A DNA stretch of 64,000 nucleotides, from the IMG/VR virus record IMGVR_UViG_3300040801_002879, positions 23,418 through 87,417 of that record, one strand, 5' to 3'. The notes below the pieces were generated by a model. It was not told the DNA's origin. It saw nothing but the letters and a program-made list of their open reading frames with translations, and searched no databases. Positions 11,160-57,838 of this stretch are shown here, in pieces. The number at the start of each line of letters is the position of its first letter. The stretch's first letter is position 1. The position numbers were made by a program, and so were the translations under genes. The stretch comes from a virus. Its lineage: Duplodnaviria; Heunggongvirae; Uroviricota; Caudoviricetes.

Positions 11160-12421
11160 TGAGAGTAATATGTGTTAGTGGCTCAAAGCCACCTGTTTCT
11201 CAAATACTTATGCCACAAGACGTAATTGTTCTATGGGCATCGGCTACTATTCCCGATGGGTGGGAAGCATTTTCTAGTGCACAGGGAAAGTTTATAAAAG
11301 GAGCAGGTGCGGGACAGATAGACTTAACAGGTGCTGGTAGTTTGACACATGCTCATACAACAAGCTTAACAAATTCTTCTGGAAGTCATGCTCACTTGCT
11401 AGACCCAAATATGAATAGTGCTTCTGGAAGTACAAATTTTTATACAGGTGGTTCTGGTGACACTGCTGCTGCAGGACATGGACACTCTCCTGGCAACTTT
11501 GATTCTGGAACTGGTGGCTCACATCAACATACGCTTTCTAATACTAATTCTGCTAGTAATTTACCGCCTTATAAAAAACTTTTGTGGATACGTTCTACAC
11601 AAGCTGATGTTGTATTGCCTATAAATGCTTTATTCTTCTATCCCTCAAGCACTGCTCCAACAGGATTTCAAAAATATGGCTCTATAACAGATGGTAGTTT
11701 TATTTATGGTGCTACTACAGGAGATATTGGTGGTACTGGAGGGGCATCTTCCCATACGCATACTAATCCTGATTCTGGTAGTAATGGTGCACATACCCAT
11801 CCTAGTGCTTCTACATCTTCTGGTTGGAATAGTAGTAATGGACCAGACGCAAATACATTTGGAGATGCAACAGTTTCTGCAAGGCACTCTCATAATTTTT
11901 CAGCCGATTTAACCAGTGCAGGAGCACATACACATACAATTGGTGCTACAGGTTCAGGAAGTAATTTACCCTCTTATGTTAACTTAGCATTAGTTGAATA
12001 CTTAAATGGTGAGAGTCTTCCTGCTAATTTAATTGTAGGTTTTTCTGGTAGCTCAGGTTCAATTCCTTCTGGATGGGCTCTTTGTGATGGGAATGGGACC
12101 ACAAATCTTGTTGATAAATATATAAGAGTGGTTACAGGAACGACAGGGGGTATTGGTGGAACAACAACACATAATCATACCATGCCAAATACAAATACAA
12201 CAGGGTCGCATAGTAATCATGGTGTAAATACAAGTGTAAGTAGTGCTGGCGGGGTGTCTGCGGTTGCTGGCAGTGGCTGGAGTGCCGCTTCTCCTTCGCA
12301 TAGTCATGGTTCATCAGCAGCGGTATATTCATCAGGAAGTCACGCCCATTCAAATCCTGATACAGGGTCATCAAACCATGAGCCCCCATATATTAAACTT
12401 TATTTTATTCAAAAGACATAG
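11159..12421 (+). CDS. Tail fibre protein with three His-rich collar-like (MdpB/phage tail collar-like) repeats
   Basis: Three repeats end in NLPPYKKLLWI, NLPSYVNLALVEYL and NHEPPYIKLYFI. They are rich in HxH/HTH motifs and G/S/T, a pattern typical of tail-collar domain fibres. Confidence 0.6.
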   Translation: MRVICVSGSKPPVSQILMPQDVIVLWASATIPDGWEAFSSAQGKFIKGAGAGQIDLTGAGSLTHAHTTSLTNSSGSHAHLLDPNMNSASGSTNFYTGGSGDTAAAGHGHSPGNFDSGTGGSHQHTLSNTNSASNLPPYKKLLWIRSTQADVVLPINALFFYPSSTAPTGFQKYGSITDGSFIYGATTGDIGGTGGASSHTHTNPDSGSNGAHTHPSASTSSGWNSSNGPDANTFGDATVSARHSHNFSADLTSAGAHTHTIGATGSGSNLPSYVNLALVEYLNGESLPANLIVGFSGSSGSIPSGWALCDGNGTTNLVDKYIRVVTGTTGGIGGTTTHNHTMPNTNTTGSHSNHGVNTSVSSAGGVSAVAGSGWSAASPSHSHGSSAAVYSSGSHAHSNPDTGSSNHEPPYIKLYFIQKT

Positions 12422-12441
12422 TGAGAAAAGGATTGTAGAGA

Positions 12442-12663
12442 ATGATGAAACAAAAATTGACAAAAGGACAAATCTTATCGTTAAGAGCTTTGGCAGAAAA
12501 ACGAGAACAGGTGATAAGTGTTCTTAAAGAATTAGCCGAAGCAGAACAAGACCAACTACATATGTTGGTGAAATTTTATGATTTGCCAGAAGACAAAGAG
12601 TATACAGTTACTCAAGAGGGAGACGAAGTTTTCCTTGTTGAAAAACCTGTAAAATCGGAGTAG
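12442..12663 (+). CDS. Hypothetical small protein
   Basis: It is 73 aa and charged, with an RBS-like GAGAATG context, and lies in the structural operon. Confidence 0.45.
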   Translation: MMKQKLTKGQILSLRALAEKREQVISVLKELAEAEQDQLHMLVKFYDLPEDKEYTVTQEGDEVFLVEKPVKSE

Positions 12664-12679
12664 TAAAAGGAGATAAATA

Positions 12680-13042
12680 ATGGCACTAATAACTGATAAC
12701 GCTTTTGATGCTGCACTAAGCTACATTAGCACGAATGGTACTGAGTTGCACATTCTTAGCCAAGCACCCGCATCTTTCGCTGATGTTGGTACATATACGT
12801 TGGGTAATGCAGTCCCAAGCTATACTGGACCTGCCAATGGTGATGCAAGTGGGCGTAAAATTACGGTAGACGCTATCTCAAGCGGTAGTGTTACTGGTGA
12901 TGGTACAGCTTCACACGTTGCTATTACTGATGGTGTGGGCGAGCTTATTGCATGGCAAGCTCTTGCTTCCTCACAAGCAGTTACCAATGGTAACACATTC
13001 AGCTTGACAGCATTTGACATCGAATTACCAGACCCCGCATAA
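12680..13042 (+). CDS. Hypothetical structural protein
   Basis: It is 120 aa, preceded by AAGGAGATAAATAATG. Confidence 0.5.
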   Translation: MALITDNAFDAALSYISTNGTELHILSQAPASFADVGTYTLGNAVPSYTGPANGDASGRKITVDAISSGSVTGDGTASHVAITDGVGELIAWQALASSQAVTNGNTFSLTAFDIELPDPA

Positions 13043-13123
13043 AGTAGGGTAAACTAATATGAATATGGCGAAGTACACCATATTATAATGTGGTGTATTT
13101 TGTCGTATCTATAGGAGATATTT

Positions 13124-16100
13124 TTGGCTCAGTTTGCTAGACCTAACTCTGATATAACAGTAGGTTCTTGGACCCCAAATACGGGTACTACGCTTTTTGG
13201 CGTTCTGGATGAAGCAACGCCCTCTGATGCCGATTATATTTCTTCTTCTCCTAATAGTAGCACTGCTGGTAGGGTAGGATTATCAAGTCTAAATGCTCCT
13301 TCTTTAGATACAGGGCATATTCTAAGACTTAGGGCAAGAAGCGGAAGACGTGGCACTGCTGTAATGAATTTCATGCTGTATCAGGGTACTACTTTGATAC
13401 ACGACTCTGGTGCAATTACACTAACCTCAACTGCCTACGGTGATTTTAATTTTACTCTTACGGAAGCAGAAGCTCAAAACATTACGGACTATACTAATTT
13501 GCAAGTTGAGCTTGATATTGCAAGCCCAGGCTCAGGTGAGTATGGTGAAATTTCTTGGGTTGAATTAGAAGTACCCGATGCTGTAGTATCAGATGATTTG
13601 ACTTCTCAGGATATTACTAGTGGTACACCTACGCTAGACTCCCCTACACTATCTCAAATACATTCACTATCTTCTCAAGAAATTACTTCTACTACTCCTA
13701 CGTTAGAACAAGCAAGTGTTAGTCAAGTTAGTGTGCTTACTGCACAAGAAATAAATTCAGGTATTCCTTTAATAGGGACTGCTACTCTTAGTGAGATTGC
13801 TGTTCTTACTCCTTTTTATATTAATTTCGGGAAAGGTAATGCCGAAGTTACTGGTATTACAGAAGTAGAAGTTGAGAATGGTATTTATAAAAGGGTATCA
13901 GATTATAATAATAGACCAAGATATATACTTAATGATAGTATTATTTATTATGAAGTTTTAGTAACACAAGAGACTTTCTACTGGCATATAGCTCAAATAA
14001 GTAGCGGTAAAATTTTATACAATTCTTTTGACGATAGTCTTACGCCTTTTGGACTTGCTTATGAACCAGCTCAAGGGTCAGGCGTACCAGAAGTTCAGGC
14101 TACGTCTGGTTCTATTCCTACGATTGATTCTTCAACACTCAGTATTGCTGCGGGGGTAGATAATCTTACCTCACAAGATATTTATGCTAGCGAGCCAGTG
14201 GTCGAGAGTCCTACTTTTTCACAAAAACATTCTTTGTCTACACAAGAAATAGTTTCTGGTACTCCTGCTATTCAACAAGCTAATATAAGTGTTTTAATTG
14301 GGCTTACTGCTCAAGATATTACGAGTGGTGCTCCTACTTTTGATGATATTTTAATATCCCAAGACCATGAGTTTAGTTCTCAAGGCATTTTAGGTGGTGC
14401 GCCTACCTTAGACCTATCTATATTGGCGCAAGCGCATATTCTTTCTATAAATGACCTACTAAGTACAGTCCCAACCCTAGCATCTTCAACGCTGTCACAA
14501 GACCACTCTCTTACTTCACAAGAGATTACTGCTGGTATACCTACAGTAGAATCACCTGATTTATCAGAAACAAATCAATTAGATTCCCAAGAAATTATTA
14601 CAACGATTGCCATTGAGCAATCCGACATATCACAAAATCATTCTCTTAGCGCACAAGAGATTACTTCTGGCGTGTCTACGATTGAATCTCCTTCAATCTC
14701 ACAACTCCACGACCTCGGCAGTAGTGAAATTACTTCTGGCGTTCCTACTGTCGAGAGTCCTATTCTTTCTCAATTACATAATCTAAATAGTTTAGAGATA
14801 AGCTCGCAAATACCAGAGATTAGCTTACCAACTCTTTCTCAAATTCATTCTCTGACTTCCCAAGAGCTTCTAAGCCAAATACAGGTAGATACGAGTGTTA
14901 TCAGTCAAGCTCATTCTTTAGATAGCTTAGAAATTACTTCTAGTCCAAATTTAGACCTAAGCACTCTTTCACAAGACCATAGTTTAGCTACAAGCGATGT
15001 TGTTAGCACACCTAGTATTGATTTTGCTAGTCTTTCAGAATCTAATGCTTTTATTGTAAATGATACAAGTTCTGGCACGCCTACAATTGATAATCCATCA
15101 CTAACTCAAAATCATGCCCTAACGTCTCTAGGCGTTTTAAGCCAAGTAGATATACAAACATCCTCAATAGAGCAGGTACATGCCTTAGAGAGCCAGCAAA
15201 TCGTTTCTAGCCCTATCGTAGAGTTTTCTTCACTATCAGAATCTAATGAATTTGGTGTTTTAGACCTTACAAGCACTGCTACATTCGAACAACCTTCTTT
15301 AGAGCAGGTTCACGAATTATCTTCACAAGAAATAAGCATAGGCACAACAGTTGAACAACCTAGCTTATCTCAAATTCATGGTCTAAGCTCTCAACCAATA
15401 CAGTCACAAATTGTTATAGATAGTCCAGATATATTAGAGGCAAATACTCTGATTGTATTAGATATTGTTTCTATTTCAACAATAGAGCAGTCTGCTATTA
15501 CACAAACCCATGAATTATCTAATAACGATATAGAAATTCAGTCTATTATCGAGCAGTCCAGCTTATCCCAAAATCATGCTCTTACTTCTCAAGAATTAGT
15601 AAGTACTGTTATAATTGAAAGTCCTACTGCATCAGAAGCAAGTCATAATTTGACAGCAAATGATATAGTAGGGTCAATTCCAGAGCTAGAAAGCCCTGTT
15701 TTTGAGCAAAATCATGTTCTAAATTTGCTTGAAATTGAATCTCAGATAGACGTAGAGCAACCATCTATAGCACAAGAACACTCGTTAACATCTTCTGATA
15801 TTCAAGGTGTTGTAACAATTGAACAACCGCTTCTAGCAGGCTCTCATGCACTAGGGTCACAAGATATAGCAATAATTCCTACTATTGAATCTCCTAACCT
15901 TTCTCAAGCTCATGCTTTATCTATCGAAGATATTGTAAGTCAAACAACAATTGATTCTCCTGCGCTATCTCAAAACCACGAGCTAGTTTCACAAGACCTT
16001 TCTAGCCAGATTATTATAGAGCAAGCTTCTACCAGCGAGACAACGGATAACCTAACTGCTCAAGATATTTTATCTGGTACGCCTGAGATTGCTCAGTCCA

Positions 16101-21266: not shown

Positions 21267-22013
21267 ATGGAAAACATATTCACTGATAACCTCAATGCGA
21301 TTTTAGCGGGTGTTATCACTACGCTACTAACAATAATTGGCATCGTTGCTCAACGCTACTTGTCAAAAATTAAAAAGAATTTAGACTTACAAACTGCTCA
21401 AAAAACTCCAGAGGAAGCAGAAGAGGATATGGGGTTTAGTCTTTGGTGTGATAGAGCTATCATGGATATTATAGCAGAGACTAGAGTAAAGACGGACAGT
21501 GCTAGAGCATATGTTATCAGATTCCATAATGGAACTTATTTTTCCAATCGACAACCTATTTGGAAACTCACCTGTACCCACGAGTCGACTGCCAAAGGCG
21601 TAGAATATCTTACGACAAAAGATGTTCAATCACTTCCTGCCTCTAACGTACTTGATATTATTGTTCCTTTTTGGGGTGGTATAAGCAGAGGGGTAAAGCG
21701 CATAGATATTCCTGACCCAACCGTAGAAGGAGACTTAGACCCTAGAAATGGGGTTTATCTTATAGATACTGAGCAAATGGATTCTAGTATGGGGAAACAG
21801 TTGTTACGTAGTGAGGGTGTTACTTGTGCTATGAATATTCCTCTGGTTAGTCCTAAAGATGGGCGCATACTAGGCTTATTTGGTTTAGATTGCTTAGACT
21901 CCGTTAGAACGTTTTCTCCAGAAGAAATAGAAATGCTTAAAGACGTTGCTGATAGAATTTCTTATATTCTTTGTAGAGAAAAAGATGAGTCTGTTCCAAA
22001 CAACGGTAATTAA
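21267..22013 (+). CDS. Membrane-anchored hypothetical protein (N-terminal TM helix)
   Basis: It is 248 aa with an N-terminal hydrophobic helix (ILAGVITTLLTIIGIVA). It is the last gene before the terminator. Confidence 0.55.
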   Translation: MENIFTDNLNAILAGVITTLLTIIGIVAQRYLSKIKKNLDLQTAQKTPEEAEEDMGFSLWCDRAIMDIIAETRVKTDSARAYVIRFHNGTYFSNRQPIWKLTCTHESTAKGVEYLTTKDVQSLPASNVLDIIVPFWGGISRGVKRIDIPDPTVEGDLDPRNGVYLIDTEQMDSSMGKQLLRSEGVTCAMNIPLVSPKDGRILGLFGLDCLDSVRTFSPEEIEMLKDVADRISYILCREKDESVPNNGN

Positions 22014-22851: not shown

Positions 22852-23832
22852 TTAATCTAATTCGGCTCGATTTACAATCGGTAATCTCTTAATCAGGTCT
22901 TGCCTTATTTCTTCTGGCAACCGTGAGGTAATGTCGGGATAGAAGGGGATAGCCAAAACATCTACAATAAACTCTGTACCGTTGTCGTCTAATTCTTTCT
23001 TGACAAGCTCTACGATAAGAGCATCAGCCTCATCATCCCAACGATAGCTAATTTCTGGTTTCTTGAGAATATCGTGTCTAACATAATCAAGTACGTCTTT
23101 TACTCGCTCATGTTCTGCAACTTCTTCTAAGAGAGAAGCAATTGCGCCTTTGATTTGGTCTTCGGTATAATCCTTTCTACCATCAGGTAATAGGGGAACG
23201 TCTTCGATATTTTCGCCATACTTTTCCATAAGCCTGTCTGCAACCTCTGGCTCCATTTCAACTAACTCTGCTCCATTCCATTTGCCGAGAGTACGAAGGG
23301 TTTCGCTGATAGCATAAGGCTTAGCGATAATGGTTTTGAAAGTTTTCTCTAAATCCATGCCTACGTACTGACAGCGTTTGATTGTAGCAAGTCGCTGAAA
23401 TACCAGTGACCGAGAGACGTGACTAGCTTCACAAAAGTAGCCAATAAGGTCTTCCATTCTAGTGAAAGGCTCGCCAGTAAGGGGATTATTCATGCCTACA
23501 TAAATAGGCGTACCGTCTTCTCTAGTCATTTCCGTTAACCGATAGATACGGAATAAACCACGTTCCCGCAAAAGCCTTGATAGGTTTATATCCCTACTCG
23601 CTACCCTCAGTGTGGTTGCTACGTCTCCGTCTACAACTTCTGGCAGTTTTGCGCTGAACAACTCTGCGAATAGCGCAACTAGTCCCAACATCTGTTTCTT
23701 TAGTTTAGGGTCAATACTACCATTACTTTTCAGTGCGTCAAAAGCTTCCTGTAACTGGATGTCATTTACCAGTTGGGCTACTTCCTGCTCCGCACTATCT
23801 GTAAACCCTATATTTACAATTTCATTTGTCAT
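22852..23832 (-). CDS. Hypothetical protein (possible recombination partner)
   Basis: It is 326 aa and shares an operon with the annealing-protein gene. I found no recognisable motif. Confidence 0.55.
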   Translation of the reverse strand: MTNEIVNIGFTDSAEQEVAQLVNDIQLQEAFDALKSNGSIDPKLKKQMLGLVALFAELFSAKLPEVVDGDVATTLRVASRDINLSRLLRERGLFRIYRLTEMTREDGTPIYVGMNNPLTGEPFTRMEDLIGYFCEASHVSRSLVFQRLATIKRCQYVGMDLEKTFKTIIAKPYAISETLRTLGKWNGAELVEMEPEVADRLMEKYGENIEDVPLLPDGRKDYTEDQIKGAIASLLEEVAEHERVKDVLDYVRHDILKKPEISYRWDDEADALIVELVKKELDDNGTEFIVDVLAIPFYPDITSRLPEEIRQDLIKRLPIVNRAELD

Positions 23833-29178: not shown

Positions 29179-29254
29179 GTAGTCGTGGGGGGAGTCGAAC
29201 CCAAACCAACCTGCGCCTTATAAGAGCGATGCTCTAACCATTGAGCTACACGAC
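29179..29254 (-). tRNA. tRNA. The anticodon-loop region is TCTTATAA, so the specificity is uncertain (possibly Ile/UAU-like).
   Basis: A perfect 7-bp acceptor stem (AGTCGTG/CACGACT) with discriminator A is present. The D-arm is GCTC-AATGGTTA-GAGC and the T-loop is GGGTTCGACTCC. The anticodon stem is imperfect when folded by eye. Confidence 0.6.
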
Positions 29255-29281
29255 TAAATATATCTTACCACAAATCTTGGG

Positions 29282-32283: not shown

Positions 32284-33327
32284 TTATTTTATAAAGCTTA
32301 GTATGTGAACTATCACGTCTACTGTAAAAGAGTTTCCTAATGCCCGTAATCGTTGGGTTTTAGAGATAGGTTTCGTTTTGTCACCAAAATCGCCCATGGC
32401 GGTATAGCCCTCATAGAACGTTTGCAGTCTCTCGACCTCAGTTGGGTGAAATTCTCTTGCACCATCAACGTCTTTGAGTACGTTGTAAGGCACACCTTTT
32501 GCCCAATTAGCTACAACGGTTGCGCTCTTGCTATCTCGAATGTCTGAGTGGTGAGCAAAATCCCAATGGGTACGCCCATCTGCCACCCTACGATTCATGT
32601 AAGCTAAGCCCTTCTCACTCAAGGCAAGCTCTTCTCTAAGCTCTTTAATATGCTCTACTGCTTCGATTTTGATAGCTGATGGGATAGACCCACCACCAGA
32701 GTTAGCACGAATAGTAGGAGATTTCTCAAGAAAAGCACGCATGTTAGGCTCACTAAAGCCACCATAGATATTGTGGATAGCTACAGGAAACACGTTTGGG
32801 TACAGAACGTCTACTAATTCAATTCCTCTGTCCTCTGGTTGAGTAACGTTAGGAATGTTGGTCCAATACAGGCGTTCCCTGCGTTGTGCGCTAACGAGTG
32901 CGCTATCAATCAGGATAGGCTCTACTCCCATAATTTCAGTCATTTCATCCTGCCACTCCTGTTTCATTTTTACGTTTTCAAGCAGGAAATAAACATCAGG
33001 ATTTAGCTCTTTGACATGTTCAAGAATGTCTACAAAGTCATAGAACAGTCGGGAGTCTGACCCTTCCAGTCCTCTACCGTTACCTGCTCGGCTAAGCTGA
33101 GTGCAGGGAGACCCACCAATAACAAGGTCAATCTCGCCAAAGGGAATGTCCCACTCCTGCCACTTAGTAATATCGCCAAGCTGAATAGTATCAGGATGAT
33201 TAAACTGAGTGATAGCAATAGCATACTTGTCAATCTCACTAGCGTAGTAGGCATCAACTTCAATTTCTAATTCCTCTAGTGCTAATTGTGCTCCTGAAAT
33301 TCCGTCAAATAATGATAATACTTTCAT
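32284..33327 (-). CDS. DNA (cytosine-5)-methyltransferase
   Basis: Motif I LSLFDGISG, motif IV GGSPCTQLS and motif VI LLENV are all present. Confidence 0.85.
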   Translation of the reverse strand: MKVLSLFDGISGAQLALEELEIEVDAYYASEIDKYAIAITQFNHPDTIQLGDITKWQEWDIPFGEIDLVIGGSPCTQLSRAGNGRGLEGSDSRLFYDFVDILEHVKELNPDVYFLLENVKMKQEWQDEMTEIMGVEPILIDSALVSAQRRERLYWTNIPNVTQPEDRGIELVDVLYPNVFPVAIHNIYGGFSEPNMRAFLEKSPTIRANSGGGSIPSAIKIEAVEHIKELREELALSEKGLAYMNRRVADGRTHWDFAHHSDIRDSKSATVVANWAKGVPYNVLKDVDGAREFHPTEVERLQTFYEGYTAMGDFGDKTKPISKTQRLRALGNSFTVDVIVHILSFIK

Positions 33328-33581
33328 TCCTCTACTCCTTCTTTAATATAGCTGATAAGAAACTTTTGCAAGGTTTCAGGTAAATCTTCCCAATTTTTCC
33401 CTTGTCCTAAACCAACGGTGAAGTCGCCCTGATTGCTAGAAAATACGCCTTGTGGATGAGAGGGGCTGTCGCTTGCAGTAAGAGTTTCGTAGTTGTCTCC
33501 CCAATCAATTCCTATAATCCAGCAGTCGGCAAACCCATTATCAAATCCTATAAATTCAATTTGTTCTGGTCTCTCAAACAT
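33324..33581 (-). CDS. Hypothetical protein
   Basis: It is 85 aa, lies upstream of and is coupled to the methyltransferase gene, and has its own promoter cassette. Confidence 0.5.
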   Translation of the reverse strand: MFERPEQIEFIGFDNGFADCWIIGIDWGDNYETLTASDSPSHPQGVFSSNQGDFTVGLGQGKNWEDLPETLQKFLISYIKEGVEE

Positions 33582-33617
33582 TCGTATCTCCTTTGCTCTG
33601 TTTACTTAACTGTACTA

Positions 33618-33672
33618 ATTCTACTACATGCCAAGGGTAAAGTCAATGGTTTAATGTTAATAGATTGTTAAC
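33618..33672 (-). promoter_or_regulatory. Promoter cassette (GTTAACAATCTATTAACAT, then TTGACT-17-TAGAAT)
   Basis: The -35 is at 33641-46 and the -10 at 33618-23. Confidence 0.65.
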
Positions 33673-33940
33673 GCTTTATGTACGCATTTACTACAGTGCC
33701 AAAAGGATAGGGGGGTGTATGGTGTAATATGTCTATCCAATAAACATTTTCATCTAACATGACGATTGCCCCTCCTCTGTCTCGACATGTATAAGTACGC
33801 CCATCTAAAACAATCTCTGTACCAAAAAGTAATTCTCTAGGACAAGCGATAGTATTATTCTTGCCCCAATAATCCTGCCAAGGCTCTCCGTTAGCCATAC
33901 GAGAAATACATTCGCCATTGACAAAGCTAGCGCAATTCAC
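33668..33940 (-). CDS. Hypothetical Cys-rich protein
   Basis: It is 90 aa. Confidence 0.45.
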   Translation of the reverse strand: MNCASFVNGECISRMANGEPWQDYWGKNNTIACPRELLFGTEIVLDGRTYTCRDRGGAIVMLDENVYWIDILHHTPPYPFGTVVNAYIKR

Positions 33941-34942: not shown

Positions 34943-35025
34943 TATATACTCCTTTGTCTAATCCAATTCCCTTATATTCTACTACATTTCTGTAATAAAA
35001 TCAAGGGAATTTTGTTAATGATTTG

Positions 35026-36243
35026 TTAAGAGGATTTAAAATTGTAGATAGGTTTGATGATTTTTAATATTCTTACGCTGTCCTGCACATTATCTACAAT
35101 ATCCTCTAAGCTTTTGTAAGCCATGGGTGCTTCATCTAAGGTACTTTGCCCTACCGATGTGGTGTAAATGCCTTCCATGGTGTCTCTAAAGTCCTCTAAG
35201 CTAAGCTCAGACTTTGCTTGCCCTCTGCTCATTAGCCTACCTGCGCCATGGGGAGCAGAGAAATTCCAATCAGGGTTGCCTTTGCCTTCACAAAGTAAGC
35301 TACCGTCTCTCATGTTGATAGGAATTAGTAGTTTCTGACCTTCATATGCTTCTACTGCGCCCTTACGGATAATATTGTCTTTGAAGCTAATAAAGTTATG
35401 AGTTGTGTGAAAAAAGTTAAATTGGTCCAATGCTCCTAAGCCTATATAATTTAGGATAACTCTAGCCATAACCTTACGATTATACTTAGCATATTCCTGA
35501 GCAATTTCCATATCGTGCAAATAATCTTCTCTATGTTGTCCTGTTAGAAAACATAGCTCAGCAGGATATTGAGGATGTTGCTTATCAAACTTAGCTCTAA
35601 GCTTTTTTAGCTCCTTAGAAATTTGTTTTTGCTTGCCTTCCTTCTTTAGGCGTTTAATCAATTCCTCTTGTTCTTTTTGGTAGCTAGCAGTGTTTTTACA
35701 ATCTTCTATTGCCAAATCCTGATAATATTTAGCAACCTGTAAGCCAAGGTTTCTGCTTCCAGAGTGGATAACTAAGTATAGGTTGCCTTCATCATCTTTA
35801 TCAACCTCTACGTAATGATTGCCTGAGCCAAGAGTACCTAACTGTGCTTCGTAATTTTTATCTGGTATGTTTTTTAGGCACTTTAGTTCTTTAATACTAT
35901 CAAATAAGGCTATAGGAGATTTGTGAGAGTTGAAACCAGCAGGTACGTATTCATGGATTACCTTGTCTAACTTTTCTAAATCCATTTCTATTTTACCTAA
36001 TTTGACTGTTAACATCCCACATCCAATATCAACTCCGACTAAATTAGGCACTACTTTATCCCCTAAGTTAGCAGTAAAACCTATAACGCACCCTGCTCCT
36101 GAATGTACATCAGGCATAATACGTACCTTAGCGTCTTTAGCGAAAGGTTGGTTTAGTAGTTGTATAATTTGTCCTTGTGCTGAGCTTTCTACTTTGTCTG
36201 TAAAAATTTTTGCTCTTCCGTATTTACCGTCTACAAAAAACAT
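35026..36243 (-). CDS. rtcB: RtcB-family RNA ligase
   Basis: The motifs MPDVHSGAGCVIG, GSGNHYVEVD and APHGAGRLMSRGQAK match the RtcB metal/GTP-binding and catalytic-His signatures. Confidence 0.85.
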   Translation of the reverse strand: MFFVDGKYGRAKIFTDKVESSAQGQIIQLLNQPFAKDAKVRIMPDVHSGAGCVIGFTANLGDKVVPNLVGVDIGCGMLTVKLGKIEMDLEKLDKVIHEYVPAGFNSHKSPIALFDSIKELKCLKNIPDKNYEAQLGTLGSGNHYVEVDKDDEGNLYLVIHSGSRNLGLQVAKYYQDLAIEDCKNTASYQKEQEELIKRLKKEGKQKQISKELKKLRAKFDKQHPQYPAELCFLTGQHREDYLHDMEIAQEYAKYNRKVMARVILNYIGLGALDQFNFFHTTHNFISFKDNIIRKGAVEAYEGQKLLIPINMRDGSLLCEGKGNPDWNFSAPHGAGRLMSRGQAKSELSLEDFRDTMEGIYTTSVGQSTLDEAPMAYKSLEDIVDNVQDSVRILKIIKPIYNFKSS

Positions 36244-36287
36244 GGTTGTCTCCTTTATATAAAAAATCCCTGCATTTCATTATAAGC

Positions 36288-36342
36288 ATTATACTACATA
36301 CTCTTCTGAAATGCAAGGATAAAATGTTAACAGATTGTTAAG
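36288..36342 (-). promoter_or_regulatory. Promoter cassette upstream of rtcB (CTTAACAATCTGTTAACAT, then TTGCAT-17-TATAAT)
   Basis: The -35 is the reverse complement at 36311-16 and the -10 at 36288-93. The repeat at 36325-42 is identical to the + strand copy at 60050. Confidence 0.7.
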
Positions 36343-36347
36343 AAATC

Positions 36348-37142
36348 TTATTCAGGATTTACCAAGTAATCTGCTATGTCAAACACTGGCTCTGTACCAC
36401 TGATAACCTGCGGTAATTGTCCATTCCAATTTGTCAAGAATAAATATTGGAGATAGCTCTCACTTAGTGCGCCTGTGTTATTCAAAATTTCTTGAGCATC
36501 AGCTTCTGCTTGAGCATTAATCTTAATTGTCTCAGCGTTAATTTCTGCTTGTTCTCTCTCTAATTTAGCAATTTCTACTTTCTGTTCCTGTACCTGTTTT
36601 TGCTCAATAGAGTTATTATATTCGGCTGAGAATTGAATGTCCTCAATATTTAGCGTTTGAATAATAATATAGAAAGGCTCTAATTCACTCTGTAATTGTG
36701 CTTGTGCTACCTGACTTAGCTCTTCTCTTTGAATAATAATCTGTTCTGCTGTATATTGTGCGGTAGCTGATTTGAACGCCTGTTCAATTTGAGGTTTAAT
36801 TATAATATCCTCATATTCCCTGCCAACTTCCTGATAAAGGTCGGCTGCACGCTCCCCAATAATTCTATAGTTGACAGAAACAATAGCTGATACTGCTTGT
36901 AGATTTGAGCTACCTGCTTCTGTTTGTAATTCAAGCTTTTGCGTTTGAGCAGACATTAATTTTCTGCCTTCAACAAGCGGAATTTTCAAACCAACGCCAG
37001 GATTTACTACTCTGTTGATAGCCCCAAAGCGTGTAATAACGCCTACGTGACCTGCTGGTACAGAGTACACTGAAAAAAGTACTACCACTACTAGCAAGAA
37101 CGCTCCTACTAGCCCTGCAATAAACTTACCTTCACTATTCAT
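36348..37142 (-). CDS. SPFH/band-7 (HflC/prohibitin-like) membrane protein
   Basis: An N-terminal TM helix is followed by an SPFH core (HVGVITRFGAINRVVNPGVGLKIPLVE) and a coiled-coil Gln/Glu-rich tail. Confidence 0.8.
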   Translation of the reverse strand: MNSEGKFIAGLVGAFLLVVVVLFSVYSVPAGHVGVITRFGAINRVVNPGVGLKIPLVEGRKLMSAQTQKLELQTEAGSSNLQAVSAIVSVNYRIIGERAADLYQEVGREYEDIIIKPQIEQAFKSATAQYTAEQIIIQREELSQVAQAQLQSELEPFYIIIQTLNIEDIQFSAEYNNSIEQKQVQEQKVEIAKLEREQAEINAETIKINAQAEADAQEILNNTGALSESYLQYLFLTNWNGQLPQVISGTEPVFDIADYLVNPE

Positions 37143-37153
37143 TTACTACTCCT

Positions 37154-37408
37154 TTACTCATATTGGTTTGGGTCACGGAAAGGACTTGTTCCTTTGCGAA
37201 AGTCAAGATACTTGTCCAATTCCGCTTTGAACTGCTCAATCTCAAATGGATTGAGGTCGAAGAACAAGGCTACTGCAATTGCTAAGCCCTGTCGTTTCTC
37301 ATTACTGTTTGGTCTTTCAGAGTCCTCTAAGAACAAGCTTCTGAAAGCTGTAGCCACTGCTACCTTACGAACTGCTTCGGGAATATCGTACCCACTTCTA
37401 TAAGTCAT
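37154..37408 (-). CDS. Hypothetical protein
   Basis: It is 84 aa. Confidence 0.5.
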   Translation of the reverse strand: MTYRSGYDIPEAVRKVAVATAFRSLFLEDSERPNSNEKRQGLAIAVALFFDLNPFEIEQFKAELDKYLDFRKGTSPFRDPNQYE

Positions 37409-50888: not shown

Positions 50889-51728
50889 CTAATCCCAAGT
50901 AATTCCTAAGATATAGTCGGATGCCTTTTGTGCCAATGATGCGCCTGTGAGTAACATCTGGCGGTCATTCTTGAGCACCTTTAGCCAGTGCTGAATGTAG
51001 GCGGTTGACTGCTGGATGGTATTGTCAATCCCTGCCTCAGCACATAAGAAAGCTGATGTAAATTCTGCCACCAATTCCTCAAGGCTGTACTTCTCATCCC
51101 CGAAAGTATTTTCGATTTTCCGATTGAGACGATTTTCTGCACCAGTGGAGTGTGCTAACTCGTGGAACAGCGCAGAATAAAAGTTGTCGGGAGAATTAAA
51201 ATCTTCTTTCAAAGGCATATGCACCTTATCAGTCGAAGGACTATAGCGAGCACTAATGCCACCAAATTCGATTACAGGAGCATTAGGCATACCCTGTACA
51301 ATCTCTTCTGCTCTCTCAACTGGTTCAAACTCTTCTGCTTTTGGCAAAGACTCGATAATCTCTTCTGCTTCATCAAGCTGTGAAATGGACCAAACCTTGT
51401 AGTAGCGCAACAATGGGAATTTATCACCTGTCTTTTCGCCAGCGTCATCTTTCTTGTCAATCCATTTAAAAAATGCGATATACTGAGGACTTTCACCCTT
51501 GCCAATGCGATACCCATGTTTCTTGATACTCTTGGCGGTAATCCAACGATTGACCCAACCCTCAACGTCTGCGGTATAAGATAATGTAAGCTGGTTCAAG
51601 CCACGATATACTTTGTTACTATCGTGATTGACTGCCCCGCTTGACCATGGCTGATGCCAAGGCAAATCACCCTTTTCCAAACCCTCAATAATCTTTCTGG
51701 TTACAATCTCTCTAATGTCTAATCCCAT
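50889..51728 (-). CDS. ardC: ArdC-like anti-restriction protein (N-terminal ssDNA-binding domain plus C-terminal HExxH metallopeptidase-like domain)
   Basis: The N-terminus (REIVTRKIIEGLEKGDLPWHQPW...YRGLNQLTL) matches the ArdC-N pattern. The C-terminal FHELAHSTGAENRLNRK matches the ArdC zincin motif. Confidence 0.7.
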   Translation of the reverse strand: MGLDIREIVTRKIIEGLEKGDLPWHQPWSSGAVNHDSNKVYRGLNQLTLSYTADVEGWVNRWITAKSIKKHGYRIGKGESPQYIAFFKWIDKKDDAGEKTGDKFPLLRYYKVWSISQLDEAEEIIESLPKAEEFEPVERAEEIVQGMPNAPVIEFGGISARYSPSTDKVHMPLKEDFNSPDNFYSALFHELAHSTGAENRLNRKIENTFGDEKYSLEELVAEFTSAFLCAEAGIDNTIQQSTAYIQHWLKVLKNDRQMLLTGASLAQKASDYILGITWD

Positions 51729-52128: not shown

Positions 52129-52267
52129 AATTTTCCTTTCACTAGTGAATAAGAGCTTGTCTTTGGTTCCGATAAGCGTGGGAGTTCATCACCCGTTGTT
52201 TCAAAGGACTTTCACCTTGCCTACGGTGGGATTTTAACCCTTAGTCCCAAAGTCTCCAAGCTCTCAG

Positions 52268-52340
52268 TACCCCTAGAAGGACTCGAACCCTCATTTCCTG
52301 TTTAGAAGACAGGTGCTCTATTCCATTGAGCTATAGGGGC
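52268..52340 (-). tRNA. tRNA-Arg (anticodon UCU)
   Basis: The acceptor is GCCCCTA/TAGGGGT with discriminator A. The D-arm is GCTC...GAGC. The anticodon stem CCTGT/ACAGG is perfect, with loop CTTCTAA. The T-arm is GAGGGTTCGAGTCCTTC. Confidence 0.75.
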
Positions 52341-53509: not shown

Positions 53510-53543
53510 TTTGTATCTCCTTTGTTGTTTCTTGACTGTCTAT

Positions 53544-53606
53544 ATTATAGGATATTCCAGCGAGAAAGTCAAGGGTGAATTTGGATTGTTAACCTGTTGT
53601 TAAACT
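53544..53606 (-). promoter_or_regulatory. Promoter cassette (GTTTAACAACAGGTTAACAAT, then TTGACT-17-TATAAT, then leader TATAATATAGACAGTCAAG)
   Basis: The -35 is at 53567-72 and the -10 at 53544-49. Confidence 0.7.
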
Positions 53607-53681
53607 AGGACAAATAAGACCAGGATTGTCGCATTTGCGGAGCTCCATTTCGGACTATTTAGGTCCGAATTGGAATATTAT

Positions 53682-54685: not shown

Positions 54686-54719
54686 TAGTGCCTTTCTTGA
54701 CTAGTTGATTGTAAGTACT

Positions 54720-54791
54720 ATTATACTATCTCACCGCCAGAAGTCAAGGGTAAAAAGCACCAATTTTCCATCGTTAACAATCTGTTAACAT
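54720..54791 (-). promoter_or_regulatory. Promoter cassette (ATGTTAACAGATTGTTAACG, then TTGACT-16-TATAAT)
   Basis: The -35 is at 54742-47 and the -10 at 54720-25. Confidence 0.65.
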
Positions 54792-54903
54792 TCCCCCGTT
54801 AATTCGTATAGTCTAGCCCCCAGGAATTAGGACAAATAGGACCAACTTTGTCCGATTTGCGGAGCTCCACATTTTTATTAACCTGTTGTTAACATTCCAA
54901 GCC

Positions 54904-54931
54904 TTGACAAGCCACGAGAAAAGAGTATAAT
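54904..54931 (+). promoter_or_regulatory. Sigma70-type promoter TTGACA-16-TATAAT for the gene at 54962
   Basis: The hexamers are consensus and are followed by the conserved TATAATATAGATAGTCAAC leader. Confidence 0.7.
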
Positions 54932-54961
54932 ATAGATAGTCAACAATAAAGGAGTTTTGAA

Positions 54962-55165
54962 ATGACAGAACGATGGGTAGAATCTGGTAAATTAGTTTTT
55001 CATGGTGGACAGTGGGTTTACTGCTTCACCACCTATGCAGGAGCAAAGGCTCATGCTAACCTAATGAACGCCTGTTCTTATAAATTTGAATATCGAGTGG
55101 AAAAAATAGACAATTTTTATTTCATTGGTATATATGATGAAGGAAGTTTCTGGACATACCACTAA
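54962..55165 (+). CDS. Hypothetical small protein (+ strand island)
   Basis: It is 67 aa, with its own TTGACA-16-TATAAT promoter, a conserved leader and AAGGAG. Confidence 0.55.
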   Translation: MTERWVESGKLVFHGGQWVYCFTTYAGAKAHANLMNACSYKFEYRVEKIDNFYFIGIYDEGSFWTYH

Positions 55166-55258
55166 TAAATACTCCTAATTGGACCTAATTAGTCCAGTTA
55201 CGGAGCTCCGCAATTCAGACTATTTGGGTCCAAATTGGGAGATTTTCAGGGGGTTTTC

Positions 55259-55884: not shown

Positions 55885-56008
55885 CGGAGCTCCTTTCGTA
55901 TAGTCATAGAGAGCTTGGTCTATGAAGCAAAGTCAGGAATCTCACCTAGTCGTGGACTGTAACCCATTAGCACTAGCGTGCCCGCATACATAGAACCAAG
56001 CCCTCTTA

Positions 56009-56089
56009 GTGGAGCCCGCAGGAGTCGAACCTGCTTCTCACCTAAGTACGTCTACCTAGGGTGCACCCTGCTGATTAAGAGTCGAGCCC
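56009..56089 (-). ncRNA. tRNA-like domain RNA with alanine identity elements and no anticodon arm (resembles a tmRNA tRNA-like domain)
   Basis: The acceptor is GGGGCTC/GGGCTCC with a G3.U70 wobble and discriminator A73. The T-arm GCAGG-TTCGACT-CCTGC is perfect. The 5' part GGGGCTCGACTC...AGCAGGG resembles the tmRNA 5' end. A sigma70 promoter lies about 100 nt upstream at 56197-56225. Confidence 0.45.
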
Positions 56090-56196
56090 CATAAATTATA
56101 TCCAGTGCCCGCCCACCGACACCGATGTTAGCCCGCCCATACACCTATTGGCTAACGCCCTCATCAACACAATCAAGGAGAAACATCACTATAAAG

Positions 56197-56225
56197 ATTA
56201 TAACACATATACTGATGTTTGTCAA
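56197..56225 (-). promoter_or_regulatory. Sigma70 promoter TTGACA-17-TATAAT driving the transcript that ends in the tRNA-like domain RNA
   Basis: The -35 is at 56220-25 and the -10 at 56197-202. No ORF lies downstream. Confidence 0.6.
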
Positions 56226-56232
56226 GTACTAA

Positions 56233-56305
56233 TTCGTGGCTGAGGATTTGAACCTCGTCTGCCTAACAGACCGCCCGCTTTTATTTTTATTCAAGCAACC
56301 ACGAA
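56233..56305 (-). ncRNA. tRNA-like element (non-canonical cloverleaf)
   Basis: A perfect 7-bp acceptor (TTCGTGG/CCACGAA), a T-loop GAGGTTCAAATCCTC and a hairpin GTCTG-TTAGG-CAGAC are present. The D-arm is A-rich and irregular. Confidence 0.35.
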
Positions 56306-56308
56306 ACG

Positions 56309-56366
56309 AGTCGTAGGGGGGATTTGAACCACACCATTCTCTAGTAGTCTTGTCCATTAGACGACT
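56309..56366 (-). ncRNA. Minimal tRNA-like element of 58 nt, related to the tRNA at 29179
   Basis: The acceptor AGTCGTC/TACGACT and T-loop GGTTCAAATCC are present. It shares AGTCGT...CCCCCC(N)ACGACT ends with the tRNA at 29179-29254. Confidence 0.3.
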
Positions 56367-56609
56367 ACAACTCTCAGTTATCTTGCGCTTGATAACTTTT
56401 CGTGGGAGAGCAGGGGTTTTCACCCTGATGCCTGTAGCCATCCCCTCTTACAGGCGTTCTCTCTCGGAGACTTCACTCATCTAACGAGACTTCTCACCCG
56501 AAAAATCATCAAACTAATGTTAAAGTTCTGGTGACTGTCAGTGTAAGCCGATTGCTATAATCTGATTACAAGTTTCCGACCTTTGCCGATTGCTTGCCTG
56601 TCACCTAAC
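56367..56609 (-). ncRNA. Promoter-driven structured non-coding RNA of about 240 nt, upstream of the tRNA-like elements
   Basis: A sigma70 promoter (-35 at 56639-44, -10 at 56617-22) sits upstream. No ORF longer than 35 aa is present. Several perfect hairpins are present (GCCTGTA..TACAGGC, GTTATC..GATAAC, CAGGG..CCCTG), plus a long-range GGTGACAG/CTGTCACC pairing and repeated GCAATCGGC and GAAGTCTC words. Confidence 0.45.
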
Positions 56610-56665
56610 TATTTATATTATACCAGCTTGCCTAGAGAAGTCAAGCACTTTATGTTAACGTTTTG

Positions 56666-57103: not shown

Positions 57104-57838
57104 TTATTTCATTATCTGCTCCTTTACAAAGTCCATGGTGCGGGTTTCCAATTCCTTTTGTAAAATTCTATCAGGCTCTTGTGCTTTGAAAAAAGCCTCA
57201 ACCTGCTCAAACTTGCGCTTGTGCCAATCATCAATCAAAGATAAGAATACAGCTAATTCTACCTCATTATTCTTAATCTTCATTAACATCCTTCTAAAGC
57301 GTGAGTCACTCTCAAACCAAAACGCCTCATTCATAGGCATACCGCTTGCCACTCGCTCCGCTAATAATAAAACTCTCAAAGCGTGGTGAGCATCCTTAGT
57401 ATCATAACCAAACTCATCAACAATAGGTTGAGTCTTTGCAGTACCTTTGTATAAGGTGCTCATTTTTTCTCGGTGCATCCCCAAGCAAGCAAACCCAAAG
57501 GAGCGCAAATGAATTTTTGAAATTCTATCAGCATTTTCTTTCAACCAAATAGGAAACCCACCAATACCACCATGAAACTTAGTTGAGAATAAAACCTCAA
57601 CAAAATTTGGATTAGCTTTCCATAACAAGTGAGATAATTGTCGGATGTCATGTACCGTATAATCAAACTCATCGGACTGCTTGCCATTAGAGAACATCCT
57701 ACCCTTGTATAAGTCCTCAAACGTGGGAGCAACAAAGAACTTCCAGTCCTCATCACTCGCAGGCGTGTTTAGATTATAGTTATGCGACCCTGTTAATGCT
57801 TGAATTATAACTCGTCTACCACCAAATCGTTCTGTCAT
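57104..57838 (-). CDS. Pol-beta-superfamily nucleotidyltransferase (RlaP/DUF-type, about 245 aa)
   Basis: The N-terminal motif ALTGSHNYNLNTPASDEDW fits hG[GS]x9-13Dx[DE] of minimal nucleotidyltransferases. The size fits stand-alone nucleotidyltransferases. Confidence 0.6.
   Translation of the reverse strand: MTERFGGRRVIIQALTGSHNYNLNTPASDEDWKFFVAPTFEDLYKGRMFSNGKQSDEFDYTVHDIRQLSHLLWKANPNFVEVLFSTKFHGGIGGFPIWLKENADRISKIHLRSFGFACLGMHREKMSTLYKGTAKTQPIVDEFGYDTKDAHHALRVLLLAERVASGMPMNEAFWFESDSRFRRMLMKIKNNEVELAVFLSLIDDWHKRKFEQVEAFFKAQEPDRILQKELETRTMDFVKEQIMK

Follow-up and report, generated by a model that had tools for sequence, protein, structure and literature searches.

RtcB and RlaP are widely annotated in phages, and both have been proposed as counters to tRNA-cleaving immunity. 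RlaP, the "RNA-ligase-associating Pol-beta" family, is defined by its association with RNA-repair ligases (PMC12776372, PMC7824862). Recent work demonstrated that it extends damaged RNA 3'-OH ends by one or two nucleotides, a biochemistry known only for the Pseudomonas enzymes, and it has "three strictly conserved aspartic acids" (PMC12776372). Cooperation of RlaP with RNA ligases in phages was proposed (PMC12776372; PMC7824862), and PMC7824862, citing Burroughs & Aravind 2016, already presents RtcB, RlaP and tRNAs together as phage counter-defence. In the literature that we searched, we found no experimental proof that any phage RtcB counters tRNA-cleaving immunity. With the T4 system, in which Pnkp and Rnl1 repair tRNA-Lys cleaved by PrrC, the locus described here shares the proposed logic, namely that tRNA nicked by the host is resealed by the phage and translation thereby rescued. 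In T4 the ends are healed first and an ATP-dependent ligase seals them afterwards, whereas RtcB joins ends directly with GTP.

We analyzed a window of 64,000 nucleotides (positions 23,418 to 87,417 of the IMG/VR record IMGVR_UViG_3300040801_002879). It comes from an uncultured, siphovirus-like phage of a lineage without cultured relatives. Megablast with the locus as query had no match among 50,697 phages. The PolA of this phage was at most 32% identical to that of any phage, therefore no cultured relative could be used. Scans of IMG/VR with PolA, RlaP or the SPFH protein gave no useful relatives, and the scan with RtcB gave relatives at 55% identity only, with neither SPFH nor RlaP in their flanks. 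Exact sequence look-up found no record for the window RtcB or for protein P0006. The features are listed in Table 1.

Table 1. Features of the RtcB and RlaP regions and the tRNA genes, in window coordinates.
Feature	Position	Strand	Basis
tRNA-Ile (UAU), CCA not encoded	29179..29255	-	ARAGORN; Rfam tRNA 55 bits; 3' end read
Second cassette, same family (D3), immediately after rtcB	34943..35028	-	family comparison
rtcB, 3'-phosphate/5'-hydroxyl RNA ligase, 405 aa	35026..36243	-	Pfam, PHROG, catalytic residues, dN/dS
RtcB promoter cassette, 104-nt spacer	36244..36347	-	sequence read directly; repeated cassette family; conserved in L025
RBS AAGGAG of RtcB cassette	36255-36250	-	sequence
-10 TATAAT of RtcB cassette	36293-36288	-	sequence
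-35 TTGCAT of RtcB cassette	36316-36311	-	17-nt spacer to -10
Operator-like TAACAATCTGTTAACA in RtcB cassette	36340-36325	-	sequence
SPFH/prohibitin-type membrane protein, 264 aa, N-terminal TM helix	36348..37142	-	Band_7, prohibitin match
tRNA-Arg (UCU), CCA not encoded	52267..52340	-	ARAGORN; Rfam tRNA 69.8 bits; 3' end read
Structured non-coding locus, two promoters, ~700 nt, just downstream of RlaP-orf95	55900..56645	-	sequence, fold
Long hairpin of non-coding locus	56003-55905	-	sequence
tmRNA-TLD-like cloverleaf, anticodon-less	56090-56007	-	Rfam tmRNA, fold
P2 of non-coding locus	-35 56225-56220, -10 56202-56197	-	sequence
Cloverleaf-like element, anticodon-less	56305-56233	-	fold
P1 of non-coding locus	-35 56644-56639, -10 56622-56617	-	sequence
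RlaP-family Pol-beta nucleotidyltransferase, 244 aa	57104..57838	-	PF10127, PHROG 388, invariant residues

The rtcB product matched PF01139 in a Pfam profile search (5e-63, 214.1 bits, curated cut-off 27) and PHROG 1075, "tRNA splicing ligase", over residues 4-404, i.e. at full length (2e-133). We aligned it with E. coli RtcB, using the residue numbers of the Shuman-lab literature, which we checked against the K-12 sequence. The metal-binding and GTP-site residues and the guanylylated His were all identical. D72, C75, N142, H143, H160, H282 and H332 of the phage protein correspond to D75, C78, N167, H168, H185, H281 and H337 of E. coli, and R164, R336 and R340 to R189, R341 and R345. The catalytic residues were likewise identical in the alignment with human RTCB. 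The initial annotation had described a full-length RtcB with all catalytic motifs, and had named substitution of these residues as the point on which this description might fail; none of the tested residues was substituted, and the description stands. The dN/dS of rtcB was 0.07 in comparison with the relative on contig L025 (0.09 for the neighbouring primase), which indicates strong purifying selection.

Homologues of RtcB were found in 693 phage records, annotated as tRNA-splicing or repair ligases. Like the phage proteins of PHROG 1075 (SPO1-like and Bastille-like Bacillus phages, Listeria A511, Clostridioides phiCD211 and many mycobacteriophages), to which it is approximately 49-54% identical over the full length, the window RtcB falls in the same length class, and its gene stands alone within the non-structural region. 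It also has in common with them a Lys/Glu-rich insertion of approximately 45 aa that E. coli RtcB lacks. The window phage itself is unrelated to these phages and has a smaller, siphovirus-type genome, unlike the large myoviruses. The nearest cellular homologues belong to Clostridium spp. (approximately 60% identity) and include the TROVE/Ro60-RtcB-WYL RNA-repair operon. In comparison with the bacterial operons (E. coli rtcBA/rtcR and clostridial Rsr(Ro60)-RtcB-WYL) the catalytic residues are the same, with 33% identity to the E. coli protein. However, the window lacks RtcA, RtcR, Ro/TROVE and a recognisable Y RNA, and the phage gene is under a phage promoter/operator cassette and not under sigma-54/RtcR control. 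We detected no TROVE domain in the scanned proteins and no Y_RNA or YrlA match in Rfam at E ≤ 1, so this is not an Rsr(Ro60)/Y-RNA/RtcB operon. The identity of a PrfH-coupled RtcB2 (TIGR03073) was ruled out, as the score was 104.8 bits with an equivalog cut-off of 271.8. A family search of the ORFs adjoining rtcB gave no matches and no prfH-like gene was seen. PHROGs yielded nothing for the ORFan neighbours, and none of the 10 proteins compared with PADLOC families, RtcB, SPFH, RlaP and neighbours included, was matched.

The claim that rtcB is driven by its own promoter cassette was borne out, as the spacer before the gene contains an operator-like site, -35 and -10 elements and an RBS, and is conserved in L025 (84% identity), where it directly follows the stop of orf84. 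In the second cassette TAACAAATCATTAACA overlaps the rtcB stop codon, and TTGATT-N17-TAGAAT begins the next unit (orf90, orf145, orf74). We read rtcB as a separate transcription unit of host type (sigma-70-like) within the block of replication genes.

The gene on the other side of this cassette encodes a Band_7 (PF01145) protein (1.4e-32, 113.6 bits, cut-off 23.6, Pfam). It has the features of this family: an N-terminal membrane anchor (hydrophobic segment at residues 7-28, read from the sequence), the Band_7 domain and a C-terminal coiled coil. Among solved relatives prohibitin was the best match (2e-22, aligned over residues 18-225), followed by HflK (2e-7), and the protein was below all the NCBIfam cut-offs for HflK, HflC and FloT. 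The anchor, domain and coiled-coil region are those of prohibitin, HflK/C and QmcA; unlike them, this protein is phage-borne, lacks an NfeD or HflC-like partner, and has an endolysin neighbour in sister phages. The initial annotation gave the right coordinates but placed the gene immediately downstream of rtcB. Both lie on the minus strand, which places SPFH upstream (37142 to 36348, then 36243 to 35026). A gap of 11 nt separates its start from the preceding ORF, and it ends before the RtcB promoter, so it belongs to the upstream unit and the single operon proposed for the two genes is not upheld. On gene order, SPFH is best read as an accessory insertion that closes the unit orf114-TM148-orf84 and not as part of an RtcB-led operon.

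The same annotation counted SPFH in the repair module. In such a module it might, for example, scaffold RtcB at the membrane or sense membrane-associated nucleases. SPFH and rtcB are neighbours in the same orientation, no terminator-like site was found between SPFH, rtcB and the second cassette, and one locus of the RlaP clade (L076) shows a weak SPFH homologue at a distance of 2.2 kb. Against this, the closest relative, L025, is collinear and carries the same promoter-RtcB unit, with RtcB 85% identical, but has no SPFH. We found no SPFH gene adjacent to RtcB in 50,697 phage records, no RtcB or RlaP near SPFH in 80 cellular SPFH loci, and no SPFH at 11 IMG/VR RtcB loci. In phages L015 and L016, which have no other gene in common with the window phage, the SPFH homologues (74% and 67% identical) come after GH25 endolysin genes; holin genes, too, adjoin homologues of SPFH. 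The other nearest homologues are on bacterial chromosomes, and the nearest cellular relatives are from Anaerolineaceae, as opposed to Clostridium for RtcB. We therefore consider a common module of SPFH and RtcB highly improbable. The distribution of its homologues indicates that SPFH is a recent, separately acquired membrane-scaffold gene unrelated to RNA repair.

The stand-alone nucleotidyltransferase reported at 57104-57838 is real and lies on the minus strand. Had it belonged to an unrelated family, the repair model would have suffered; it proved to be a member of the ligase-associated RlaP family. It matched PF10127 at profile positions 19-235 of 249 (41.8 bits, curated cut-off 23), and also PHROG 388. 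G17-S18, D29, D31, D59 and D64 were invariant in 23 homologues (32-81% identity). The Pol-beta G-S motif and the conserved aspartates are present, the aspartates being matched by conservation among homologues. No RlaP entry was detectable by sequence in the PDB. The dN/dS was 0.11 in comparison with relative L027. As in P. fluorescens PfRlaP and T4 NrdC.11, PF10127 was above cut-off, GS...DxD...D is conserved and the genome also holds an RNA ligase. Unlike these, the window RlaP is 21 kb from the ligase, belongs to a clade rich in Bacillota phages (98 of its 109 phage matches were in Bacillus phages), and is followed by a tRNA-like non-coding locus, not by rtcA. RlaP-RtcB and RlaP-tRNA neighbourhoods recur in relatives: among 80 metagenomic loci of the clade, which together span 667 kb and of which 46 reach 5 kb or more, 6 had RtcB in the fetched flanks and 9 had tRNA arrays within 3.5 kb. 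The suggestion that the enzyme might restore 3' ends came near to the published chemistry, because this family adds one or two nucleotides to RNA 3'-OH ends (PMC12776372); it is, however, not a CCA-adding enzyme.

At least two tRNAs had been reported, and ARAGORN and Rfam identified them as Ile-UAU and Arg-UCU; CCA is encoded on neither, as was noted at the outset. Several tRNA-like RNAs had also been listed. This was borne out in part: ARAGORN and Rfam at gathering score recognise the two tRNAs only, and two further cloverleaf-like elements lie in a single non-coding locus. Relaxed ARAGORN runs (introns, low thresholds) gave only noise, and when we scanned strictly for T-arms, nothing emerged beyond tRNA-Arg, the TLD-like element and a single chance site. 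AGA makes up 42% of the Arg codons of the phage and AUA 30% of its Ile codons. Both tRNAs match heavily used codons, therefore no defence-related explanation of them is needed and they are no evidence for a defence conflict.

On balance, we favour the explanation that RtcB and RlaP keep translation going during infection by resealing nicked tRNAs. Host or phage tRNAs nicked by metal-independent host ribonucleases (anticodon nucleases, toxin RNases) would be resealed by RtcB, which is predicted to join 2',3'-cyclic-phosphate or 3'-phosphate ends to 5'-OH ends in a GTP/Mn2+-dependent reaction via His332-GMP. By analogy, RlaP might re-extend a trimmed RNA 3'-OH end by one or two nucleotides. The integrity of the gene, the conservation of residues and promoter, purifying selection, the RlaP membership and the recurrent neighbourhoods of RlaP with RtcB and with tRNAs in relatives are directly supported by the sequences. 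From the genes we infer enzymatic activity, a tRNA substrate and a benefit in counter-defence, a role that the two proteins may have. Several points count against this explanation. Bacterial RtcB substrates include rRNA and mRNA too. RtcB and RlaP are 21 kb apart and are not co-transcribed. No other repair partner was found among approximately 60 window proteins (RtcA, Pnkp, archease, ATP-dependent ligase Rnl1/2, CCA-adding enzyme, TROVE/Ro, 2H, Hen1). Finally, RlaP leaves a 3'-OH while RtcB needs a 3'-phosphate, an incompatibility flagged by the RlaP authors (PMC12776372).

RtcB could also serve general RNA repair, resealing rRNA or mRNA that host toxins (MazF/RelE-like, colicin-E3-like ribotoxins) or infection stress had cleaved. 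Bacterial RtcB paralogues repair 16S rRNA with PrfH (PMC9304027), the Clostridioides phage homologues carry the annotation "release factor H-coupled RctB", and the window has no pointer specific to tRNA. We regard this as possible but unlikely, as the window RtcB scored far below the PrfH-coupled cut-off and no prfH-like gene was seen, and as RlaP, tRNAs and tRNA-like RNAs occur in the same genome and relatives of RlaP often flank tRNA arrays.

The structured locus beside RlaP is more unusual than the RtcB and RlaP set. It folds with z = -3.8 over 421 nt, and its cloverleaves with z = -1.9 and -4.1. The Rfam tmRNA match had 20 bits (E 4.7e-4 window-wide). In one cloverleaf the alanine identity set is complete (G3:U70, A73), and the T-arm resembles that of tmRNA. 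In L027 the promoters and several blocks are conserved, with a cloverleaf of different sequence in the equivalent position. GOLLD, ROOL, YrlA and ribozymes were considered, and none of them had an Rfam match at E ≤ 1. Pattern scans of IMG/VR for blocks of the locus gave either 0 hits or 62 chance 16-mers without extended similarity. The TLD-like element may be an attP copy of the 3' end of a host tmRNA or tRNA; however, it also comprises a 5' acceptor strand of its own and a D-like arm, it is part of a promoter-driven transcript, and we saw no integrase. The sequence that bears on the question of attP or gene capture versus mimic is GCAGGTTCGACTCCTGCGGGCTCCA.

RtcB might instead mature the RNAs of the phage itself, by ligating or circularising fragments of structured non-coding RNA or by joining processed tRNA pieces. 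RtcB circularises RNAs with cP/5'-OH ends, and the two-promoter locus with its two anticodon-less cloverleaves adjoins RlaP, a position conserved in L027. We find this quite improbable: no self-cleaving ribozyme or intron was detected (Rfam, E ≤ 1), the products of RNase P and RNase Z lack RtcB-type ends, RtcB is 20 kb from the locus, and most of the RtcB-carrying phages retrieved in our scans have no comparable locus in their flanks. It is also improbable, as we see it, that RlaP and the locus make up a previously undescribed phage RNA module of anticodon-less tRNA mimics, acting either as decoys or sponges or as substrates or scaffolds of RlaP and RtcB. Decoys would be aimed at host tRNA-targeting nucleases or tRNA-tail nucleases; substrates or scaffolds would loosely resemble the Y RNAs of Ro-RtcB operons. 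Any link of the locus to RNA repair is a conjecture.

In summary, the RtcB and RlaP set is an ordinary example of the published phage RNA-repair toolkit and reveals no new principle. The locus adds a clean, independently promoted and strongly constrained RtcB in a phage lineage without cultured relatives. The negative result is of practical use, as the SPFH neighbour is incidental and should stay out of RNA-repair models. The feature most worth following up is the tRNA-mimic non-coding locus beside RlaP, which could bear on the response of phages to tRNA-targeting defences.

We aligned the window RtcB with E. coli K-12 RtcB and, as a second comparison, with human RTCB. The protein matched PHROG 1075 'tRNA splicing ligase' over residues 4-404 (2e-133). 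The residues by which E. coli RtcB coordinates its two metal ions and GTP (D75, C78, N167, H168, H185 and H281), together with H337, the histidine that is guanylylated, were identical in the window RtcB (D72, C75, N142, H143, H160, H282 and H332, respectively). R189, R341 and R345 were likewise kept, and the same motifs were visible in the alignment with human RTCB. The initial annotation had described a full-length RtcB with its catalytic motifs, and no substitution of these residues was found. dN/dS of rtcB against L025, the closest relative contig for this region (85% amino-acid identity), was 0.07, as low as that of the neighbouring primase (0.09); purifying selection on rtcB is strong. 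Compared with E. coli RtcB, we observed a Lys/Glu-rich insertion of ~45 aa (residues ~179-226, window 35560-35710), common to both IMG/VR phage RtcBs aligned (L001 and L009). A PrfH-coupled rRNA-repair subtype was ruled out (104.8 bits vs 271.8 required). Phages often carry RtcB: in a phage collection of 2.3 Gb it occurred in 693 records, about once per 3.3 Mb.

The nucleotidyltransferase did not belong to an unrelated family. It matched PF10127, 'RlaP, RNA repair pathway DNA polymerase beta family', above the cut-off, and also PHROG 388. Alignment with 22 homologues (32-81% identity) revealed an invariant Pol-beta G17-S18 motif and invariant D29, D31, D59 and D64. The RlaP family owes its name to an association with RNA-repair ligases. 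In Pseudomonas, RlaP enzymes add one or two NMPs onto the 3'-OH of damaged RNA and help to bring back aminoacylation of over-trimmed tRNA, and according to the authors of that work the 3'-OH product is no RtcB substrate without a further step (PMC12776372). RlaP and rtcB lie 21 kb apart in the window. We sampled the neighbourhoods of 80 metagenomic RlaP-clade loci (667 kb in total; 46 loci spanned 5 kb or more) and compared them with the frequency of RtcB in the phage collection. RtcB was present in the flanks of 6/80 loci; at L046 and L071 it lay ~2 kb or less from RlaP, with matches in the same direction. In 9/80 loci tRNA arrays were found within 3.5 kb of RlaP, three of them beginning 290-690 nt downstream of it. 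Judged by these neighbourhoods, the association is real but loose.

Coordinates and main properties of features in the window
Feature	Position	Strand	Details
rtcB	36243 to 35026	minus	405 aa; PF01139, 214 bits (cut-off 27)
RlaP	57838 to 57104	minus	244 aa; PF10127, 41.8 bits (cut-off 23), profile positions 19-235 of 249
SPFH/Band_7 gene	37142 to 36348	minus	264 aa; 1.4e-32
Structured non-coding locus	55900-56645	minus	~700 nt, two promoters; just downstream of RlaP-orf95
First cloverleaf, anticodon-less	56305-56233	minus	73 nt, z -4.1
Second cloverleaf, anticodon-less	56090-56007	minus	84 nt; resembles tmRNA tRNA-like domain
ArdC-N + zincin MPTase-PolyVal protein	50889-51728	minus	anti-restriction type
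C5 cytosine methylase	32284-33327
Final plus-strand gene	21267-22013	plus	C-terminal GAF domain (4e-6)
Operator-like motif, examples	33655, 35013, 36325, 44055, 45223, 51806, 53587, 54775, 56653, 56989, 58763, 60052, 60400, 60738
Intergenic repeats, examples	50440, 53637, 55202, 58102, 58840, 59653, 61289

The same two tRNAs were called by ARAGORN and by Rfam, one for Ile (UAU) and one for Arg (UCU). CCA was encoded by neither, as had been noted initially, and no further tRNAs were detected in the window by either program at normal thresholds. AGA makes up 42% of the Arg codons of the phage and AUA 30% of its Ile codons. Both tRNAs decode these heavily used codons, and codon supply is enough to explain their presence. 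For the enzymes, tRNA repair is the best-supported reading of the sequence, and we consider it somewhat probable. During infection, an active RtcB would reseal translation RNAs broken to cyclic-phosphate/5'-OH ends, and RlaP would be available for rebuilding trimmed RNA ends. General repair of rRNA or mRNA by the same ligase seems unlikely, and its use in the maturation of phage RNAs is still more doubtful.

The SPFH protein had been proposed as a partner of RtcB, encoded immediately downstream. This order holds in plus-strand coordinates only; since both genes are on the minus strand, SPFH lies upstream. The protein has a hydrophobic N-terminal anchor and is nearest, among solved structures, to prohibitins (2e-22). 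L025 is collinear with the window at 32.7-46.2 kb (about 78% nucleotide identity), and its gene order is DnaG-orf116-orf138-orf84-cassette-RtcB, with SPFH absent; the ~900 nt at 36353-37256 of the window are matched there by only ~100 nt. The junction alignments placed the SPFH ORF, together with an RBS of its own, precisely after the stop of orf84 and ahead of the cassette. The two nearest homologues, at 74% and 67% identity, each directly follow a GH25 endolysin in a phage contig (L015, 9181-10816, also near a holin; L016, 8222-9854), and these phages have no other gene in common with the window phage. Homologues at 58% and 50% identity were found in bacterial chromosomes, and one at 38% within a different phage replication module.

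Neither RtcB nor RlaP occurred within 5 kb of SPFH in 80 cellular SPFH loci (721 kb). We searched 50,697 phage records by tblastn with an SPFH+RtcB fusion query (at least 80% query coverage at one place) and found no adjacent pair among them, and SPFH was absent from all 11 IMG/VR RtcB loci examined. Five independent tests agree that SPFH is not part of the RNA-repair module, and we regard a partnership with RtcB as highly improbable. SPFH starts 11 nt past orf84, and it belongs to the unit upstream of rtcB, fed by a consensus promoter at 38211-38184. In sister phages its homologues adjoin lysis genes, a hint of a lysis- or membrane-related accessory role. Save for an error of strand and order, the features described in the initial annotation are real; its reading of RtcB and the nucleotidyltransferase was right and that of SPFH wrong.

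The cellular kin of SPFH are nearest in Anaerolineaceae MAGs (43-54%) and those of RtcB in Clostridium spp. (about 60%), which is consistent with separate acquisition. RlaP was closest to Bacillus-phage proteins. The origins of the three genes appear mosaic and therefore give no basis for naming a host.

SPFH and rtcB are separated by a spacer of 104 nt with the sequence TAA(stop)-GATTTCT-TAACAATCTGTTAACA-N8-TTGCAT-N17-TATAAT-...-AAGGAG-N6-ATG. The proposal that rtcB has its own promoter cassette was confirmed at the level of a conserved sequence feature, because L025 has it at 84% identity, with the operator and both hexamers included. A second copy, whose start coincides with the rtcB stop codon, drives the following genes; no terminator-like site was found in the window sequence between SPFH, rtcB and the next unit. 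The operator-like TAACAA-N4-TTAACA had 38 matches in the window (up to 2 mismatches; 14.2 +/- 3.9 expected), a number reached by 0/100 shuffles, and many genes in the minus-strand block carry it just ahead of their sigma-70-type -35/-10 boxes. The motif, which contains GTTAAC palindromes, precedes the CCCTTGACTT/-10 promoters of many genes at 33.6-62.4 kb by ~8 nt. It probably marks the binding site of a phage regulator and a class of co-regulated genes. We also observed in L025 an extra 498-aa gene (11711-13207, faint PcfJ match) between homologues of window ORFs 33668-33940 and 33324-33581. This indel takes the place of the window promoter cassette at 33582-33667, the same situation as for SPFH, which suggests that cassette boundaries are insertion hot spots.

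Elsewhere the phage carries large siphovirus-type tail genes on the plus strand at 1 to 22 kb (Sipho_tail, BppL_N, Sipho_Gp37) and, on the minus strand at 22 to 64 kb, replication and accessory genes (Rad52/Erf, DnaB-like helicase, PolA, C5 DNA methylase, DnaG primase, ArdC/MPTase, GP88). The GAF-domain gene past the tail module is unusual at such a position, and no endolysin or holin was recognised within the whole window. The ArdC-N/MPTase protein, encoded amid many small genes, and the C5 methylase are candidates for further counter-defence genes. Dense intergenic repeat families were present at 50.4-62.4 kb, with GGAC(A/T)AAT...GGTCC units on either side of a GGAGCTCC palindrome, and several repeat-bearing gaps had far better folds than their shuffled versions (53510-53681, z -5.5; 54686-55256, z -5.8).

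The structured locus beside RlaP is unusually G+C-rich (0.46) and strongly structured (z -3.8 and -3.4). Rfam aligned its second cloverleaf to the two ends of the tmRNA model (20 bits; window-wide E 4.7e-4). The acceptor stem of this cloverleaf is 7 bp long and includes G3:U70, the discriminator is A73, the T-loop is the canonical UUCGACU, and the anticodon arm is replaced by a 10-bp hairpin with a tetraloop. Of the several tRNA-like RNAs reported initially, the two cloverleaves stand, but no additional tRNA does. In L027, a relative of the RlaP region (RlaP 81% identical), both promoters and several sequence blocks are kept, as is a hairpin whose stem is altered on both strands with pairing preserved. 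A cloverleaf of quite different sequence occupies the same position, the tmRNA-like element is missing, and the matching interval contains no called genes. Pattern scans of the sequence blocks in IMG/VR found no homologues beyond L027, and the locus has no Rfam family.

The counter-defence concept, of which the tRNA-repair reading is a case, is already in the literature: a phage RNA-repair model with RtcB, ATP-grasp ligases, RlaP, CCA-adding enzymes and phage tRNAs has been set out (PMC7824862, which cites Burroughs & Aravind 2016). The tRNA-mimic locus adjacent to RlaP is the only part of the finding that might be new.
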